Assembly: GCA_964490395.1 (NCBI GenBank)
Contig: CAZBAS010000001.1
Span: forward strand, 275,815 to 339,814
Direction: 5' to 3'
Source: an uncultured Candidatus Saccharibacteria bacterium
Lineage (GTDB): Bacteria > Patescibacteriota > Doudnabacteria > UBA920
Length of the DNA stretch: 64,000 bases
Part shown: positions 9,094 through 56,435 of the stretch, piece by piece
Layout: each line of letters begins with the position of its first letter
How positions within the stretch are numbered: position 1 is the stretch's first letter
Made by a program: the position numbers and the translations under genes
Notes under the pieces: model-generated
Told to the model about the DNA's origin: nothing
The model's input: the letters and a program-made list of their open reading frames with translations, nothing else
Database searches by the model: none

Positions 9094-9160
9094 AGTCAAA
9101 ACCATTGATACTTTGAAAATAAAGAAACGCTCTTACGAGCGTTTCTTTATTTATGCAATC

Positions 9161-11185: not shown

Positions 11186-11728
11186 TTAGTTTTGTGCGAA
11201 GTATGACTCAGCATCATTGAGCAAGTTGAGGCTCCGTCTTACAGTCTCGCCCCACTCTGCTTTCGAAGTGTCTTCGGGTCTTGTGTGCTTTGCTATGAGC
11301 AGTTTTGCTTGTAAGGCAAGTTCTTTTTGCGTCTCGTTTGAAGTGATGATGGTGTTATGTATAAAAACCATCCCATTTTCTGTCGCCTTAATTTGCCTTG
11401 ATTCCTTGATTTCTGATATCGCTAGCATTTGTCCAAATGCCAGCTGCCTAGGGCTCGCCCAACGCATAGTGTAAACAGAGCCTTTTATCACGCAAATTGT
11501 TAGCAATATATCGCCGGGAAGTTGAATATTCATCTTCAAGGTGGGGCCGTCTGAGGATTTTGCTAGCACGACATTGCTTGGGCCTAAATTCTGCTCTTCC
11601 ATAATCTCTCCTGTAGCTTTTGCGAAGAAATAAAAGCCAGACCAATCGTGGCCTGACAAATTACAGGGTAAGTATATTCTTTTTTCAAGGTTTGGCAATG
11701 GTATATTCTTTACACTTTTCTCATTCAA
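11186..11728 (-). CDS. Hypothetical protein (TTG start in track; start uncertain)
   Basis: ORF only; no recognizable motifs. Confidence 0.3.
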   Translation of the reverse strand: MNEKSVKNIPLPNLEKRIYLPCNLSGHDWSGFYFFAKATGEIMEEQNLGPSNVVLAKSSDGPTLKMNIQLPGDILLTICVIKGSVYTMRWASPRQLAFGQMLAISEIKESRQIKATENGMVFIHNTIITSNETQKELALQAKLLIAKHTRPEDTSKAEWGETVRRSLNLLNDAESYFAQN

Positions 11729-11743
11729 CTTTACACTGCATTT

Positions 11744-12781
11744 ATGCCAGAACTACCTGAAGTTGAGACTGTTGTTTCGGAATTGCATAAAAAGCTGAAA
11801 GGGAAAACCATTGCTTCGGTTGAAGTGCGAAAACCAAAGCTTATTAGTGTTGGGCCAAAGACTGTTTCGAACATTCGTAAAGTGAGTAAGAGCAAAGTAA
11901 AAATATTTCAGGAATTATTAGCTGGGCAGAAAGTTGTTTCGGTGAAACGGAGGGCGAAGTTGTTGATATTTGATTTGGACCGTAGTCTCACCCCCTCTAA
12001 CTCCCCCTTAGAAAAGGGGAGAACAAGAGAAAATACCTTTGGTCCTGCCCCTCTCCTTTCTAAGGAGAGGCTGGGTGTGGTGAAAGAAACTGGTTCATTA
12101 TCAATGCTCGTGCATTTGAAAATGACCGGACAGTTTATATGCGAAAACAAGGCGCTTCGTAAAAAAACAAATGGCAAATATAGAATTCTAAACAGGCCAA
12201 CAGCGCCACTCGTACAGCTGCCCTGTAAGTTTACGCATGTAATTTTCCATTTTTCAGATGAGTCAACGCTTTACTTTAATGACATGCGCCAGTTCGGCTA
12301 TCTAAAAATAGTGCGCGATGATGAGATTGGCCGAGTCCGCGAACTGAAAGAATTTGGTCCTGAACCTTTCTCAAAAGAGTTCACGTGCGAAAAGTTTAAG
12401 GCTGCAGTAAAAAAGAGGATTAAGTCACCTATTAAGCTTGTGCTCATGGACCCTAAAGTCGTGGCGGGAATAGGGAATATATATAGCGATGAAATTTTAT
12501 TTCATGCAGGCGTACGGCCAGAGCGGCTCGTATCAAGAATTAAGAATCAAGAATTAAGCAAAATCTATGAAGCCATACGGCCCATCCTAAAGAAAGGGAT
12601 AGAGGCTAAAGGCTCAAGTGTAGGAGACTTTGTACGTACCGACGGCACCTGGGGCCAGATGGGAAAATATCATTTTGTGTATGGCCGTAAAGGAGAAGAC
12701 TGCAAACGTTGTGGTACTATAATAGAAAGCACAAAGCTCGGCGGCCGCACCGCAAGCTTCTGCCCGAAGTGCCAGGTATAG
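11744..12781 (+). CDS. fpg: Formamidopyrimidine-DNA glycosylase family (Fpg/Nei) carrying an in-frame roughly 40-aa palindromic insertion
   Basis: MPELPEVETV N-terminus (catalytic Pro2/Glu3), C-terminal zinc finger CxxC...CxxC; extra segment 11990-12110. Confidence 0.85.
   Translation: MPELPEVETVVSELHKKLKGKTIASVEVRKPKLISVGPKTVSNIRKVSKSKVKIFQELLAGQKVVSVKRRAKLLIFDLDRSLTPSNSPLEKGRTRENTFGPAPLLSKERLGVVKETGSLSMLVHLKMTGQFICENKALRKKTNGKYRILNRPTAPLVQLPCKFTHVIFHFSDESTLYFNDMRQFGYLKIVRDDEIGRVRELKEFGPEPFSKEFTCEKFKAAVKKRIKSPIKLVLMDPKVVAGIGNIYSDEILFHAGVRPERLVSRIKNQELSKIYEAIRPILKKGIEAKGSSVGDFVRTDGTWGQMGKYHFVYGRKGEDCKRCGTIIESTKLGGRTASFCPKCQV
11995..12075. repeat. Two adjacent perfect/near-perfect hairpins inside fpg CDS (CTCCCCCTTAGAAAAGGGGAG and CCTCTCCTTTCTAAGGAGAGG)
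   Basis: Palindromes read directly; in frame within fpg. Confidence 0.8.
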
Positions 12782-13089: not shown

Positions 13090-13123
13090 CCGCCTCTTCG
13101 GCGGACATGCCGATGAGGCATGG
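13090..13123. repeat. Intergenic double-hairpin element (CCGCCTCTTCGGCGGAC + CATGCCGATGAGGCATGG); 17-mer identical to copy inside CDS at 55450
   Basis: Exact 17-nt match to 55450-55466; two stem-loops. Confidence 0.8.
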
Positions 13124-20530: not shown

Positions 20531-20676
20531 GTATATATAAACTTAATTTATCTAAGCAAATCAAAAACTCTCCTGAAGGAGAGTTTTTGATTTTGACCGC
20601 CGCCGCAAGGCTATGGCGCGCAGACTTCGCATCAAATATCTGGTCAACTTTATTCAGGCATCCCTCAATCTTCTTA

Positions 20677-20780: not shown

Positions 20781-20818
20781 ACCAAAGAAAACACCTGACT
20801 TAGATCAGGTGTTTTCTT
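20781..20818 (-). terminator. 15-bp perfect hairpin (AAAGAAAACACCTGA/TCAGGTGTTTTCTTT) immediately 3' of tRNA-Gly
   Basis: Perfect inverted repeat. Confidence 0.6.
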
Positions 20819-20892
20819 TGGAGCGGGATACGGGAATCGAACCCGTCCCACCAGCTTGGAAGGCTAGCGTACTACCACTATACGAATCCCGC
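20819..20892 (-). tRNA. tRNA-Gly (anticodon UCC), CCA encoded
   Basis: Manual cloverleaf: acceptor GCGGGAT/ATCCCGC, anticodon loop CTTCCAA, T-loop TTCGATT, discriminator U. Confidence 0.85.
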
Positions 20893-47415: not shown

Positions 47416-47436
47416 GCATTTGCTGTAGGTATTACA

Positions 47437-47475
47437 AAAGAGTCATCTGCACTAGGCAGATGACTCTTTTTATTG
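47437..47475. terminator. Bidirectional terminator AAAAGAGTCATCTGCACTAGGCAGATGACTCTTTTT
   Basis: Perfect 11-bp stem flanked by A-run and T-run between convergent genes. Confidence 0.8.
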
Positions 47476-49340: not shown

Positions 49341-50325
49341 AAAAGTCTCGATACCAATATACGAATGTACTAATTATACAAATACAGAGCGTCTTTAATT
49401 AGTATCATTAGCATGCATTCGTAGATTAGCATCGATACTAACGCCTTGCGTTATAAAAATAAGACCCAAGTGGGCCCTTCAAAAAACCTCAATAATTATA
49501 ACCTATTCCGCTTATTTTGGCAAATAAAAAAGGCGTAATTACCGATTTTTCGAAACATTTCGAAATATCGTTAATCCGCCCATGGCGCGAGAAGAAATCG
49601 TATGATTTCTTCAACCGTGACCATTAGCACCGCTATCCTTATGAGGCGGTACCCGATGCTCAGCTTCTCGGCCATTGTCCCCCCTGTTGAATTGACCTTC
49701 TCGCGCACCAGCGAGATTGGCCTGTTGTTATTGCCAGATTCTGATTTATCAGATGGTGCGTCTGGCCAGTTTTTAGGGGGACACTATGCATGCGAGCATA
49801 AGTCCTCCGAAGATGATTAGGAACACGAAGGCCAGCATTACTCCTAGTGCTAACCATTTCATATTTTTAAACTCGCGAGCGTCCATTCGCGAGCTCCGTT
49901 TTTGGCGATACTGCAGACGCGCCACTGGTTTTCAGCATCTGATGAGGAGTGCTGCGAAAATTGTGACTAGGCCCAAGCCTATAGTGTTGCGGGGAAAGTT
50001 TTCTATGTTAAAGAAACTCAATTCACTTACCTCATCCGTGTTCGCTCGAATGGTCTCCTTATTTCGTTTACCGGCTTTTCGCGAACAAGCCGTTTTTAGT
50101 GTATTACTGGTGGCCACTAAAAAGTGACCACAGATAAGCTAGGAGTTGGGCCAGTCTCCACAGTACTCCAATAATCGCAAGAACTGCAGCAAGACCCAAC
50201 ACATATGTTGTGAACCGCATTTTATACGACCCATCGACTAACGGTCAGTTTTAGGTTTACCCTCAAGACTGAGGGGACTTAGAGGTGCATATTGCCTGTG
50301 CCCCTCCAATAGTGCCTGTCTGCGC

Positions 50326-54339: not shown

Positions 54340-54972
54340 ATGAGTGAACTGCCAAAAATAATGCAGCATGTGTACATACGACTGAATACACCTGATAAGA
54401 TTCAGACTTTTATAAATACACTTCCGGCGAATTTTGAACTAAAGGGTGAAACCTATATGTCGCCGCTTCGGACACTGAAGGAACAAAAAGCTCATTGTAT
54501 GGAGGGCGCGCTTTTAGCAGCGTCCATATTAAAATACCATGGACACAAGCCGCTCATTATGGACTTGCGAGCACAAAAGCCAGACCAGGACCATGTGGTA
54601 ACATTATTTAAAAATAATGGATACTGGGGTGCTATAAGTAAAACAAATCATGCAGTGCTTAGATATCGCGAGCCAATCTATAAAACATTGCGCGAGCTGG
54701 CACTGTCCTATTTCCACGAATACTTTGACAATGCTTCCGGTAGTAAAAATTTACGAGAGTATTCAGCTGCTTTTAATTTAGAAAAGTTTAACCGTATACA
54801 GTGGGAGACAGCAGACGTAGATTTGTGGGACATTGTTGATGCGCTCGATAATTCCAAGCATTATTTTCTTTTAAATAAAAAACAAGAAAAAATCTTACGC
54901 AAAGCCGAACCCATAGAAATAAAAGCCGGCGAGCTGACTGAGTGGTCCAAATCCGGAAAAAAGCTTTTCTAA
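54340..54972 (+). CDS. Hypothetical protein, possible transglutaminase-like Cys/His/Asp fold
   Basis: Spaced C...H...D residues (AHCMEGA...DHVV...); weak. Confidence 0.3.
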   Translation: MSELPKIMQHVYIRLNTPDKIQTFINTLPANFELKGETYMSPLRTLKEQKAHCMEGALLAASILKYHGHKPLIMDLRAQKPDQDHVVTLFKNNGYWGAISKTNHAVLRYREPIYKTLRELALSYFHEYFDNASGSKNLREYSAAFNLEKFNRIQWETADVDLWDIVDALDNSKHYFLLNKKQEKILRKAEPIEIKAGELTEWSKSGKKLF

Positions 54973-54978
54973 TTTCCA

Positions 54979-55081
54979 CTGTTCGCAATTTAAGCGGCCG
55001 CTTAAATTGCGAACAGGTGTCGTTTAAATATTTGAGTGCTACAAGGGCATCTTCTGCAGGAGCTGCAGAAGATGCCCTTGT
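54979..55081. terminator. Two consecutive perfect palindromic hairpins (38 bp with GCGGCCGC centre; 41 bp with CTGCAGGAGCTGCAG centre)
   Basis: Perfect inverted repeats read directly. Confidence 0.7.
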
Positions 55082-55097
55082 GTGATAGGCTATATAT

Positions 55098-56435
55098 ATG
55101 CAGTATCTACTCGTAATAACGTTATTGGTTGCCCCTACTTACGCCATTCGTTTTGAGTTGTTTGGTTTACCGACGAACGTCCTTATGGTGTGGGTGTTCG
55201 TTGCTTGGTTTGTATTTGCTCTATGGCTTTTCGCTCGTCATAAATTTGCTAATCTTTTTCACTGGCTTCGTTCTGAGCTTGTTACTTGGCATGGTATACT
55301 TGCCGCTGTATTTTTTCTTGTAGGGGTAATTTCTCTTTTTGTTGGTGGATTCTCAGAGGAAAAGCTCGGCCAATTTCTCGTCCTCTTCTTCCAGCCGGTC
55401 GGCACTTTTATACTATTGCGCTATTTGTCTTCTATTGAAAATTGGAAATCCGCCTCTTCGGCGGACCAGCCAAAGAGGCTGGTTGGAAATGTGCTGACAC
55501 ACACAGCGTTGCTATTTGTATCAGTTGCTGGTCTCTATGCCATAGTCCAATATTTTACCCTCATTGGTGTGCCTGTCGCGTGGTGGGGTAACAGCGAAGA
55601 GCCAAAACGAGCAGTGGCGTTTTTCATGCATCCAAATTTTTATGCGCTGTTCATCACGCCGCTTTTGGCGTTCTTGCTACCCATAGTTAGTGGCCAGTGG
55701 CTGAAACAGGCAAGACAGGTGCACTCCGGTCCCTCTCCTCGCGAGCAGAGGTTACGTGAGATCACAGAAAAGCATTGTGATGCACCAGGGGTTTCTAAGA
55801 CCTCCTCCAACTCCTCATCACGAGGAGGAGGACAGGGCCTACTCACTACTTCCGCCTTGCTTCTCGGTGCAGTTGGCCTTTTGCTGTCTTTGTCCCGTGG
55901 CGGCTGGCTGGGCCTTGCTGCTGCGATTGGCGCCTATATTCTCATTACTGGAAATCGCACACTATTAAAACGCGCGGCCGCGCTTTTTGCTATTTCACTC
56001 ATTGTGGTACTCGCGGTGCCGAACTTTCGTTATAGGATACTGCTGCCATTCCGCGGGGAAAAATCGACCGTCGCACGGTTCTCTCTGTGGAATACCGGAT
56101 GGAAAATGGTTACAGATAGTCCGGTATTGGGTAAGGGTCTCTTGGGGTTTAGTAATAACTGGTATGCGTACAATACCGATTCAGGCCTACAACATTACCC
56201 AGCGCCGCACAATATTGTTTTAAATTTTTGGATAGACACAGGACTCCTTGGTCTCATATCCTTTTTTTGCCTGCTCGTGCTCGCCGCAGTTCGGAGTCTT
56301 AAAGACCGTGATAACGTGTACAAGCTTGGCCTCCTGCTTGCCTGCATTGCGCTGGTAGTCCATGGTCTCGTTGACATTCCCTATTTCAAAAATGACCTAG
56401 CATTACTGTTTTGGATGTTGTATAGTTTTATTTAA
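55098..56435 (+). CDS. O-antigen ligase/polymerase family membrane protein carrying two in-frame GC-rich palindromic insertions
   Basis: Wzy_C-like LSLSRGGWLGLAAAIG region; polytopic. Confidence 0.65.
   Translation: MQYLLVITLLVAPTYAIRFELFGLPTNVLMVWVFVAWFVFALWLFARHKFANLFHWLRSELVTWHGILAAVFFLVGVISLFVGGFSEEKLGQFLVLFFQPVGTFILLRYLSSIENWKSASSADQPKRLVGNVLTHTALLFVSVAGLYAIVQYFTLIGVPVAWWGNSEEPKRAVAFFMHPNFYALFITPLLAFLLPIVSGQWLKQARQVHSGPSPREQRLREITEKHCDAPGVSKTSSNSSSRGGGQGLLTTSALLLGAVGLLLSLSRGGWLGLAAAIGAYILITGNRTLLKRAAALFAISLIVVLAVPNFRYRILLPFRGEKSTVARFSLWNTGWKMVTDSPVLGKGLLGFSNNWYAYNTDSGLQHYPAPHNIVLNFWIDTGLLGLISFFCLLVLAAVRSLKDRDNVYKLGLLLACIALVVHGLVDIPYFKNDLALLFWMLYSFI
55450..55482. repeat. 33-bp double-hairpin element inside the ligase CDS, identical 17-mer to intergenic 13090; flanked by direct repeat (A/G)TTGGAAAT
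   Basis: CCGCCTCTTCGGCGGAC + CCAGCCAAAGAGGCTGG; TTGGAAAT at 55442-55449 and 55483-55490; 33+9=42 bp keeps the frame. Confidence 0.85.
55790..55850. repeat. Second polypyrimidine/polypurine palindrome (CCTCCTCC...GGAGGAGG) inside the ligase CDS
   Basis: Inverted repeat; encodes low-complexity SSNSSSRGGGQG segment. Confidence 0.55.

Follow-up and report, generated by a model that had tools for sequence, protein, structure and literature searches.

The window considered here, by which we mean the whole stretch of DNA that was analyzed, comprises 64,000 nucleotides from an uncultured bacterium of the candidate phyla radiation (GenBank assembly GCA_964490395.1, contig CAZBAS010000001.1, positions 275,815 to 339,814), and our subject is an in-frame insert in its fpg (mutM) gene, which encodes the 8-oxoguanine DNA glycosylase Fpg. 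The fpg open reading frame (ORF) occupies positions 11744-12781 on the + strand and is intact, specifying 345 amino acids with the PELPEVE N-terminal motif, the HLKMTG motif, the H2TH domain, and a CxxC...CxxC zinc finger. Pfam assigns residues 1-186 to Fapy_DNA_glyco, 205-294 to H2TH, and 317-344 to zf-FPG. Because the first of these matches spends 186 residues on a profile of only 116 positions, the N-terminal domain must hold extra material.

It contains an insert of 111 nt at 11978-12088 (+), corresponding to codons and residues 79-115 and reading DRSLTPSNSPLEKGRTRENTFGPAPLLSKERLGVVKE in translation. It falls between FDL and TGS, the latter being, by both protein and DNA alignment, the SGP turn of orthologues that have no insert. 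Its borders were set by DNA alignment with two empty sites, those of L213/P0004 (GATCTC followed at the junction by TCCGGTCCT) and L211/P0006 (AATTTC followed by TCCGGGCCA). The same Fpg protein recurs on independent contigs from both Logan and ENA, and an NCBI source is listed for it too; since identical proteins emerge from independent assemblies, the insert is not an assembly artefact. An intein or intron is likewise ruled out, as the insert is 111 nt long with an open frame and has none of the features of those elements.

Architecture of the insert

Two hairpins with 3-nt loops lie within the insert. Hairpin 1 pairs CTCCCCCTT (12001-12009) with AAAGGGGAG (12013-12021) at 8/9 positions, while hairpin 2 pairs CCTCTCCTT (12050-12058) with AAGGAGAGG (12062-12070) at 9/9. 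An earlier note on this DNA had reported both hairpins here, in frame within fpg, and in this it was correct, the reading frame being intact; the in-frame insertion that it described is real as well, although at 37 codons it is slightly smaller than the 40 or so residues then estimated. A hairpin scan of the whole window identifies these two as its only homopurine/homopyrimidine G+C-rich hairpins, the many further perfect hairpins being A/T-flanked and terminator-like.

A third arm becomes recognizable when the region is aligned with the insert-bearing orthologues L003 and L004 and both strands are read. Unit 2 (12050-12082, + strand) consists of the pyrimidine (Y) arm CCTCTCCTT (12050-12058), a TCT loop (12059-12061), the purine (R) arm AAGGAGAGG (12062-12070), a CTG loop (12071-12073), and a mirror arm, GGTGTGGTG (12074-12082). 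Unit 1 (11989-12021) is read on the - strand, with Y arm CTCCCCTTT (12013-12021), loop TCT (12010-12012), R arm AAGGGGGAG (12001-12009), loop TTA (11998-12000), and the mirror, or reverse-Hoogsteen, arm GAGGGGGTG (11989-11997). In both units the third arm is the mirror image, and not the complement, of the purine arm, with G standing opposite G and either A or T opposite A. With 7-nt arms, unit 2 reads CCTCTCC TTTCTAA GGAGAGG CTG GGTGTGG on the + strand, and unit 1 reads CTCCCCT TTTCTAA GGGGGAG TTA GAGGGGG on the - strand. The two are inverted copies of one design, set head to head at a distance of 28 nt; in the intervening spacer (12022-12049, AACAAGAGAAAATACCTTTGGTCCTGCC) no separate repeat structure was found. 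What the earlier note called palindromes are therefore hairpins, as it said, but not plain palindromes, because the mirror arm turns each into a triplex motif.

Intrastrand triplex motifs have been sorted into four classes (Holder et al., 2015; PMC4666352), of which class II presents a Y arm, an R arm, and a reverse-Hoogsteen arm in that order, and the ITxF criteria of the same work call for stems of 6-15 nt and loops of 1-6 nt (PMC4666352). The G/C-rich family of this kind in E. coli has been traced from BoxC (1990s) through the PIT (potential intrastrand triplex) elements of Hoyne, Maher and colleagues (2000) to TMECO (PMC4666352). The class II order is found here in unit 2 on the + strand and in unit 1 on the - strand. 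Pairing of Y with R, for which one mismatch is allowed, is complete in unit 2 (9/9) and has a single mismatch in unit 1 (8/9), while the third arm matches in 7/7 core positions of both units and in 8/9 once the TT/TG extension is counted. The lengths, too, are those of class II, whether one reads 9-nt arms with 3-nt loops or 7-nt arms with loops of 7 and 3 nt.

A scan of the 64 kb for three-arm motifs (Y arm, loop, all-purine arm, loop, mirror arm; 7-nt arms with at most one mismatch) returns exactly two G-rich loci, both of them in the fpg insert, and 200 dinucleotide-preserving shuffles of the window yield no such motif at all.

Orthologues with and without the insert

As a comparison set we used the 120 best homologues, which are Fpg proteins of the Patescibacteria type, the best named ones coming from Candidatus Doudnabacteria. 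(A scan of genome contigs for Fpg relatives is dominated by the universal MPELPEV motif and returned three close relatives, L007-L009.) The modal form, found in 72/120, has 308 amino acids, reads ...LLIFDL-SGP-LSMLVHLKMTGQF, and is without the insert. In the solved structures of MutM/Fpg, too, the chain makes a tight turn here (LLDRDALISHLRM in 1L1T); the earlier note had held that E. coli Fpg has no such segment. Among the 120, the full-length insert is common only to P0002 and P0003, which are 83-85% identical overall. Outside the loop, identity is 90.3% between P0001 and P0002, 88.3% between P0001 and P0003, and 90.6% between P0003 and P0004. The last of these, the closest relative of the carrier P0003, has an empty site, and the doublet must therefore have been either cleanly lost or gained twice within proteins at least 85% identical to one another.

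The insert's peptide is only 61.5% (P0002) and 46% (P0003) identical, as against 88-90% for the rest of the protein, and nucleotide identity with L004 is 63% as opposed to 78% in the flanks. The arms nonetheless continue to match. The R arm and third arm of unit 2 are GGAGAGG/GGTGTGG in the window, GGAGAGG/GGAGAGG in L003, GGGGGAG/GAGGGGG in L004, and GGGGAGG/GGTGGGG in L207, while those of unit 1 are GGGGGAG/GAGGGGG in the window and GGGGAGG/GGAGGGG in L004; the corresponding pyrimidine arms have 0-1 mismatch, the exception being L003 unit 1, with 2 mismatches in all. The three arms change in concert among the orthologous copies, such that the structure is kept while the peptide drifts. Whether these concerted changes reflect selection in situ or replacement by other copies, the constraint is on nucleic-acid structure. 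It had been suggested in the earlier note that the DNA hairpins might prove better conserved than the encoded peptide, and this holds for the three-arm structure, though not for the nucleotide sequence as such.

Two further orthologues extend the comparison. P0121, a 92%-identical variant, has only one difference within the insert, V to E, which, judging by codon from the protein, would most simply result from T becoming A in the third arm (GGTGTGG to GGTGAGG), a substitution that the triplex code permits. P0121 differs from the window Fpg at just 2 of residues 1-195 and is far more diverged over approximately 196-290, a pattern that suggests a recombination mosaic within fpg. The one distant carrier is P0060, whose identity outside the loop is 66%; its doublet is the same and lies at almost the same position, with an extra small palindrome nested inside unit 1. 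Its insert peptide is 36% identical, so that a distant homologue shares the DNA unit and not a conserved peptide, as the earlier note's proposal of a selfish-type element would have it.

In the related contigs L004, L207, and L213, PF05635 (23S_rRNA_IVP/bAvd-like) proteins are encoded downstream of fpg, at distances of roughly 100 nt to 1 kb. L207 also encodes a GIY-YIG protein directly upstream of fpg, and a second one lies ~9 kb upstream of fpg in L208. These neighbors are small genes typical of selfish or defence islands, in a RelA/SpoT-fpg neighborhood that is otherwise syntenic.

A turn that accepts insertions

An AlphaFold2 model of the window protein, built from a 30-sequence alignment, has a mean predicted local distance difference test score (pLDDT) of 80.9. 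Residues 84-114 fall below 50, have no secondary structure, and protrude between the confidently modeled strands 73-80 and 119-124. The insert is thus probably translated, as its open frame implies, into a disordered 37-residue surface loop; an example of a tryptic peptide predicted for the loop-bearing enzyme is ENTFGPAPLLSK. The turn itself presumably sits at the edge of the β-sandwich, far from the DNA, given that some 8-10 residues separate it from the Met of HLKMTG that intercalates.

If gene-start miscalls are set aside, internal insertions of at least 3 residues in the 120 homologues all lie at reference positions 78-81, save one at position 183 in P0002, and a few indels of 1-2 residues occur near reference position 187. 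Some insert is present at the 78-81 turn in 31/120 homologues, and these inserts are of at least 10 kinds. By their DNA, P0010, P0012, and P0013 each have one triplex unit, on the minus strand, whose second loop contains a mini-hairpin, and P0046 and P0074 carry decayed triplex units. The commonest turn insert, SPTSPRLRRTS (30 nt), is a different small element, scattered over the tree in about ten proteins. No shared DNA motif beyond coding constraint was found at the empty sites when a conserved target was looked for there. In 132 kb of contigs from the clade, a sample partly chosen for having inserts, every G-rich triplex unit lies in fpg. We take structural permissiveness to be the main cause of this hot spot, with targeting possible in addition.

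Two of the Fpg inserts resemble a second small repeat with the core CCTCTTCGGCGGAC, distinct from the triplex unit, which occurs in the window at 13093-13118 (intergenic) and at 55453-55478 (in frame, in a gene with the Pfam domain Wzy_C). These are the second Fpg insert of L003, ALRRQGYGGQ, and the nested insert of L207, PKTGTGGQA (DNA ...CTGGCGGACAGGC), whose ...GGQ(A) peptides look as though they are related to the CCTCTTCGGCGGAC repeat.

The orthologue and structural data bear directly on whether the 37 residues might be a selected functional module of Fpg, making contacts with a partner or with DNA, for example, with the symmetry of the DNA a secondary matter. One can point to a reading frame that has stayed open in four lineages, to the roughly one quarter of homologues with some insert at this same turn, and to a composition rich in Pro, Gly, Lys, and Arg. 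A module under selection, on the other hand, would hardly be so much less conserved than the rest of the protein, be missing from both P0004 and the modal form, and be modeled as disordered, and the unit is elsewhere mostly intergenic, its recurring peptides being simply its stop-free readings. We consider a selected protein module highly improbable.

A dispersed family of triplex units

Metagenomes were scanned with the pattern TTTCTAAGGRGRRGYTRGNNGNGG, in which nothing is fixed beyond the first loop, a purine arm written as R/G, and some of the tail positions. There are at least 120 matches, and 97 are non-redundant among the matches listed, to which the counts of arms, tails, pairs, spanning ORFs, and orientations given below also refer. 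A perfect 7/7 complementary Y arm, which forms no part of the pattern, accompanies 71/97. At the three tail positions left free, G is found opposite G in 175/177 cases, and A (52) or T (50) is found opposite A in 102/114, almost never C or G. Where purine arms are asymmetric, 75/82 tails follow the mirror rule, 0 follow the direct-repeat rule, and 7 follow neither. These correspondences (G·G-C, A·A-T, and T·A-T, the third strand running antiparallel) constitute the purine (reverse-Hoogsteen) triplex code.

It is this code that bears most heavily on two rival explanations. According to the first, the units are plain palindromic elements, akin to MITEs, the miniature transposable elements with inverted repeats, or to REP sequences and of the type of the Rickettsia palindromic elements (RPEs), with incidental G-rich tails. 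Much about them is compatible with this, including two real 9-bp hairpins, inverted copies separated by a spacer as in a REPIN or a MITE, and the precedent of in-frame palindromic insertions among the RPEs (PMC10969869), but Watson-Crick pairing does not explain a mirror repeat, let alone one obeyed in 75/82 cases with so strict a choice of base opposite A, nor does it explain why the third arm varies together with the hairpin arms among orthologous copies. The ends of the unit also lack a GTAG/CGTC tag. We regard incidental tails as very unlikely.

The second rival is a two-tetrad G-quadruplex (G4) on the purine strand, together with an i-motif on the C strand, serving as a regulatory or oxidation-sensitive device in a gene for an 8-oxoguanine glycosylase. 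The R arm and third arm do provide at least four GG tracts (e.g., GGAGAGG CTG GGTGTGG), the interruptions are A or T rather than C or G, as the loops of a G4 would prefer, and all G-rich units of the related contigs sampled lie in fpg. A G4 does not, however, require its interruptions to be mirror-symmetric, as they are in 75/82 instances versus none as direct repeats; the complementary C-rich arm, perfect in 71/97, is unneeded by such a structure and would compete with it; and the TT extension that matches the AA of the hairpin is a feature of a triplex. Given also that units are found in many unrelated genes and spacers, and in either orientation, a G4 seems very unlikely to be what has been conserved.

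The unit is well delimited. At least 79 units with at least 6/7 Y-arm pairing sit in unrelated flanking contexts, across which conservation is high from the YY before the Y arm, through 31 nt, to the TT after the tail, and drops to zero directly outside. The unit is a discrete element of about 35 nt. Its terminal TT mirrors the AA of the TTTCTAA loop, and that AA pairs in turn with the leading TT, so that the architecture is one of 9-nt arms and 3-nt loops; hence the 9-bp stems that the earlier reader noted, and hence, given the terminal TT, a triplex extended to nine triplets. The flanks of the unit consist of two pyrimidines (mostly TT) on the 5' side and TT on the 3' side, the latter fitting the triplex as T·A-T. 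The 5' pyrimidine pair, which has no structural partner, could represent a target preference or a 2-bp duplication. Another unit lies within 150 nt of 37/71 evaluable units, mostly in inverted arrangement.

The metagenome units are mostly intergenic and take either orientation relative to genes, with long ORFs spanning 14/97 matches, 3 of the 14 having no Y arm and being put down to chance, which leaves about ten in frame in other genes. Seven genes confirmed by Pfam have a unit in frame, namely those for ATP synthase subunit a, PEP synthase/PPDK, urease alpha, UvrC, a UvrD-like helicase-nuclease, O-antigen ligase, and an FAD protein. A metagenome surface protein reads TPSNSPLEKGE, which is almost the peptide of unit 1 of the window. 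With in-frame units in several unrelated genes, the in-frame survival of triplex units is evidently recurrent. Direct reading of the unit finds 1/3 frames free of stops in the + orientation, where the first loop has TAA and the tail has TGA or TAG, and 2/3 in the - orientation. Because only these stop-free frames are readable, the same peptides, PLLSKE(R/G)LGxV and TPxNxPLE(K/R)G, recur.

In the hairpin at 12050-12070, and in the family consensus CCCCTCCTTTCTAAGGAGGGG, the R arm is a perfect Shine-Dalgarno sequence, AAGGAGG, and the Y arm with its loop (CCTCCTTTCTA) resembles what we take to be the 3' end of 16S rRNA, the anti-Shine-Dalgarno, possibly by a coincidence of polypyrimidine and polypurine sequences. 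Such likenesses lend some substance to the idea of an RNA element, in which mRNA hairpins with an internal Shine-Dalgarno-like AAGGAG(A/G)G within the R arm would pause ribosomes or stabilize the transcript, each hairpin being capable of folding as RNA. The doublet, however, has one of its units in antisense to the mRNA, metagenome copies likewise occur in both orientations, and the third-arm code is the purine motif of DNA, triplexes of which are reported not to form in RNA (PMC4666352). An Rfam search of 11700-12400 gave sub-threshold chance matches only and no known RNA family. An RNA element strikes us as extremely improbable.

An endonuclease gene beside the units

To find recurrent neighbors, all ORFs of the metagenome loci bearing triplex units were clustered. 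The commonest neighbor is DUF559 (PF04480), a Vsr-fold endonuclease of the PD-(D/E)XK type (Pfam E ~1e-31), represented by nine distinct sequences from the clustering and by a tenth locus, L184, from a profile search. This amounts to 10 DUF559 ORFs in 0.76 Mb of unit-bearing loci, versus 0 in 1.27 Mb of control genome loci. Adjacency here means that the gene lies within ~350 nt of units, and it is usually bracketed by inverted ones. The bracketing is tight, with the third arm often abutting the start codon, and the stop codon often appears, from the sequences, to be supplied by the second loop of a unit. Bracketed genes are found in L098, L112, L133, L142, L164, L184, L193, L208, L217, and adjacent units in L215 and L155. 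Three of these loci were chosen for DUF559 homology alone. In L215, a Patescibacteria locus, a head-to-head doublet lies 20 nt upstream of the DUF559 start, and the gene is bracketed on both sides in L217 as well as in L208, a Doudnabacteria-type contig, where it lies 8 kb from that contig's own fpg.

The association extends well beyond these metagenomes. Of eight plasmid DUF559 genes (L221-L228), 7/8 have adjacent units, the hosts being Photobacterium, Pseudanabaena, Neisseria gonorrhoeae, Synechocystis, Deinococcus, Azospirillum, and Sphingomonas, while the same plasmid loci contain 0.0025 units per locus when shuffled. In Sphingomonas, DUF559 forms a cassette wedged between sufB and sufC. 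Across loci chosen without regard to the repeat, units adjoin DUF559 in 11/12, and the association spans Patescibacteria, Cyanobacteria, Deinococcus, and alpha-, beta-, and gamma-Proteobacteria. Peptides of the triplex-unit type are found at the called termini of 36/120 DUF559 homologues, as compared with 0/216 control windows.

E. coli K-12 itself provides an instance. In the interval NC_000913.3 1351040-1351760 (L214), its ycjD gene, annotated as DUF559, has TMECO no. 9 ~170 nt from its 3' end, for which the chance expectation is small, since with 23 copies in 4.6 Mb the probability of a TMECO within 200 nt of a given gene end is ~0.002. A decayed unit overlaps the ycjD stop codon, and the remnant of a second DUF559 3' end lies between ycjD and TMECO no. 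9. Of complete E. coli genomes, 38% lack the ycjD-TMECO block: the K-12 fabI-sapF interval (788 bp, containing TMECO no. 9 and ycjD) is covered to at least 80% in 3375/5426 genomes, the others keeping only its first 123 nt. A clean co-excision of TMECO together with ycjD was considered and rejected, as the one block-lacking genome inspected, O157:H7 ECP19-198, has a TetR/RND island after fabI and not a clean empty site.

The association of triplex units with DUF559 is solid, and in the literature searched we found no report linking the two. As to what it signifies, BoxC/PIT/TM repeats may be the terminal or target structures of a widespread family of tiny selfish DUF559 (YcjD-like) cassettes, with gene-less singlets and doublets, the one in fpg included, being MITE-like derivatives mobilized in trans; we put this forward tentatively, at somewhat short of even odds.

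Other repeats in the window

The O-antigen-ligase-like gene mentioned above (Pfam Wzy_C; 55098-56435, +) contains in-frame purine/pyrimidine material at 55453-55478, 55721-55751, and 55801-55831. It includes a decayed minus-strand triplex unit (CCTCTGC TCGCGA GGAGAGG GACC GGAGTGC) and, ~50 nt away, a hairpin (CCTCCTCC...GGAGGAGG), and the peptide reads ...GPSPREQRLRE...SSRGGGQG... An intact doublet is present in a similar Wzy_C protein at the metagenome locus L154. This is probably the "ligase" gene in which the earlier note saw palindromes of the same style, and the decayed doublet bears the comparison out in part; the long perfect palindromes at 54979-55081, by contrast, are intergenic. Considered as intragenic elements, the two at 54979-55016 and 55041-55081 had to be discarded, since they lie between convergent or tandem ORFs (one ending at 54972, the next starting at 55098) and are terminator-like. 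Further long perfect palindromes occur at 9117-9152, 20558-20593, 20782-20821, and 47436-47470. All of these have stems of 14-19 bp with feet rich in A/T, and they too are terminator-like and not intragenic elements. A weak motif at 50258-50287, intergenic and with 2 mismatches, was treated as chance.

Interpretation

We think it quite probable that the insert is a head-to-head doublet of G/C-rich class II intrastrand triplex motifs of ~33-35 nt, carried as passenger DNA in a permissive loop of Fpg. Each unit comprises a 5' pyrimidine arm, a TCT loop, a purine arm, a YTR loop, and a mirror third arm. Whenever the strand that bears it became single-stranded, as in replication, repair, or a transcription bubble, the first two arms could fold into a 9-bp hairpin, and the third arm could then turn back into the major groove and lie antiparallel to the purine arm, forming the G·G-C, A·A-T, and T·A-T reverse-Hoogsteen triplets. 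We infer such folding for the fpg units from the covariation code and, by analogy, from published in-vitro work on TMECO. The doublet would have landed in, or have survived only in, the β-hairpin turn of the N-terminal domain, where its stop-free frame would allow it to be translated as a 37-residue loop of an enzyme otherwise intact. Its presence or absence in close relatives, its drifting peptide, and its concerted arms would all befit passenger or selfish DNA, and it is presumably neutral for Fpg. For its spread, mobilization in trans by a DUF559 (Vsr-fold) endonuclease may be the best lead, because DUF559 genes are bracketed by such units elsewhere.

Several observations weigh against this account. 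Both triplex formation and translation are deduced, the latter from the open frame, and in the published system no triplex was seen in double-stranded TMECO, nor any dimethyl sulfate (DMS) footprint in vivo (PMC4666352). Watson-Crick folding of the insert as DNA (ViennaRNA, both strands) is unremarkable, at z ~ -1.7 to -1.8; as the signal resides in a third arm that a tool confined to Watson-Crick pairs cannot model, hairpin energy alone does not single out the insert. The unit is not visibly multicopy in this genome, the only other G-rich units in the 64-kb window being the decayed Wzy_C doublet, and the 132 kb of related contigs have no G-rich unit outside fpg. No obvious target-site duplication is seen at the fpg insert. 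No transposase was found among the window ORFs, not all of which were scanned against Pfam, and the window has no DUF559-like ORF; with no such gene near it, the fpg doublet would be at most a gene-less derivative. Finally, the confinement of many insert types almost exclusively to one Fpg loop is not explained by tolerance alone.

The locus shows that an intact gene for DNA repair can accommodate such a repeat in frame, that the repeat there evolves under constraint at the level of DNA structure and not of protein, and that a single turn of Fpg has repeatedly taken up several kinds of small structured repeat in the streamlined genomes of candidate-phyla-radiation bacteria. It accounts for some of the unusual loops, rich in Pro, Gly, and Lys, that proteins of these organisms contain, and its covarying arms offer a data set, supplied by nature, on the triplet code of the purine motif. 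Should the DUF559 proposal be true, these spacer-poor genomes would keep such derivatives mainly in permissive protein loops, and lineage-specific insertions in proteins would have triplex repeats as one of their sources. Intrastrand triplex repeats have been on record since the 1990s without an assigned function or means of spread, and were the DUF559 link causal, the nature of the BoxC/PIT elements and the role of YcjD-type proteins would come together in one testable hypothesis.

Comparison with known systems

The closest structural relatives are the BoxC/PIT/TMECO repeats. The TMECO consensus is CCCTCNCCC N3-6 GGGNGAGGG N3 GGGNGAGGG, and the single-stranded element forms a stable triplex in vitro (PMC4666352). 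K-12 has 23 copies, "always located intergenically," which are without promoter or terminator activity and mark variable loci (PMC4666352). Inverted pairs occur at five of the K-12 sites, and by the coordinates in Table 1 of that work four of them have a tail-to-tail arrangement and the fifth, like the fpg doublet, a head-to-head one (PMC4666352). Shared with the units described here are the class II order, 9-nt arms, 3-nt loops with the second loop often TTA, the G·G-C and A/T·A-T code, G/C richness, dispersal in many genomes, frequent inverted pairs, and variation in presence or absence between close relatives. The arms, on the other hand, are different: CCYCYCCTT...AAGGRGRGG here, in a candidate-phyla-radiation host, as opposed to CCCTCNCCC...GGGNGAGGG in TMECO. 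The window arms (CCTCTCCTT / CTCCCCTTT) do not match the TMECO consensus in this comparison, which for the window was made by arm sequence, the pattern itself matching the E. coli locus L214. By sequence, then, the window units appear to be of the same class as TMECO and not of the same sequence family. They differ in location as well, being intergenic in K-12 and lying within codons 79-115 of an intact fpg here. In the literature searched, we found no description of triplex motifs inside coding sequence or in candidate-phyla-radiation bacteria. Because the published copies are intergenic, it is not the kind of element that is new but its setting, coding and presumably translated, in a hot-spot loop of a candidate-phyla-radiation bacterium.

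In behavior, and on that basis alone, the nearest parallel is provided by the RPEs, small palindromic repeats that insert in frame into unrelated housekeeping genes and add a peptide segment at fold-compatible sites (PMC10969869). They differ in being ~100-150 bp long and Rickettsia-specific, with a conserved peptide ORF and no mirror third arm.

H-DNA, for its part, has in common with the fpg units both homopurine mirror symmetry and the reverse-Hoogsteen triplet code. It forms, however, from a duplex mirror repeat alone, whereas here a pyrimidine arm is present on the same strand and one single strand can supply all three arms. Mirror halves of 7-9 nt are also short for H-DNA.

The REP/REPIN sequences, lastly, are likewise non-autonomous stem-loops, short and G/C-rich, found either alone or in inverted pairs across a short spacer. 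The enzyme that mobilizes them, a RAYT, is considered to come from another locus, where the repeats flank its gene, and in this the family of the fpg element may be alike. The fpg units differ from them in having a mirror arm and in having no GTAG/CGTC tag, their ends being YY...TT, and the flanked genes differ as well: in REP/REPIN-RAYT systems the gene encodes a Y1 (IS200/IS605-like) transposase, whereas the recurrent neighbor of the triplex units is the DUF559 Vsr-fold endonuclease.

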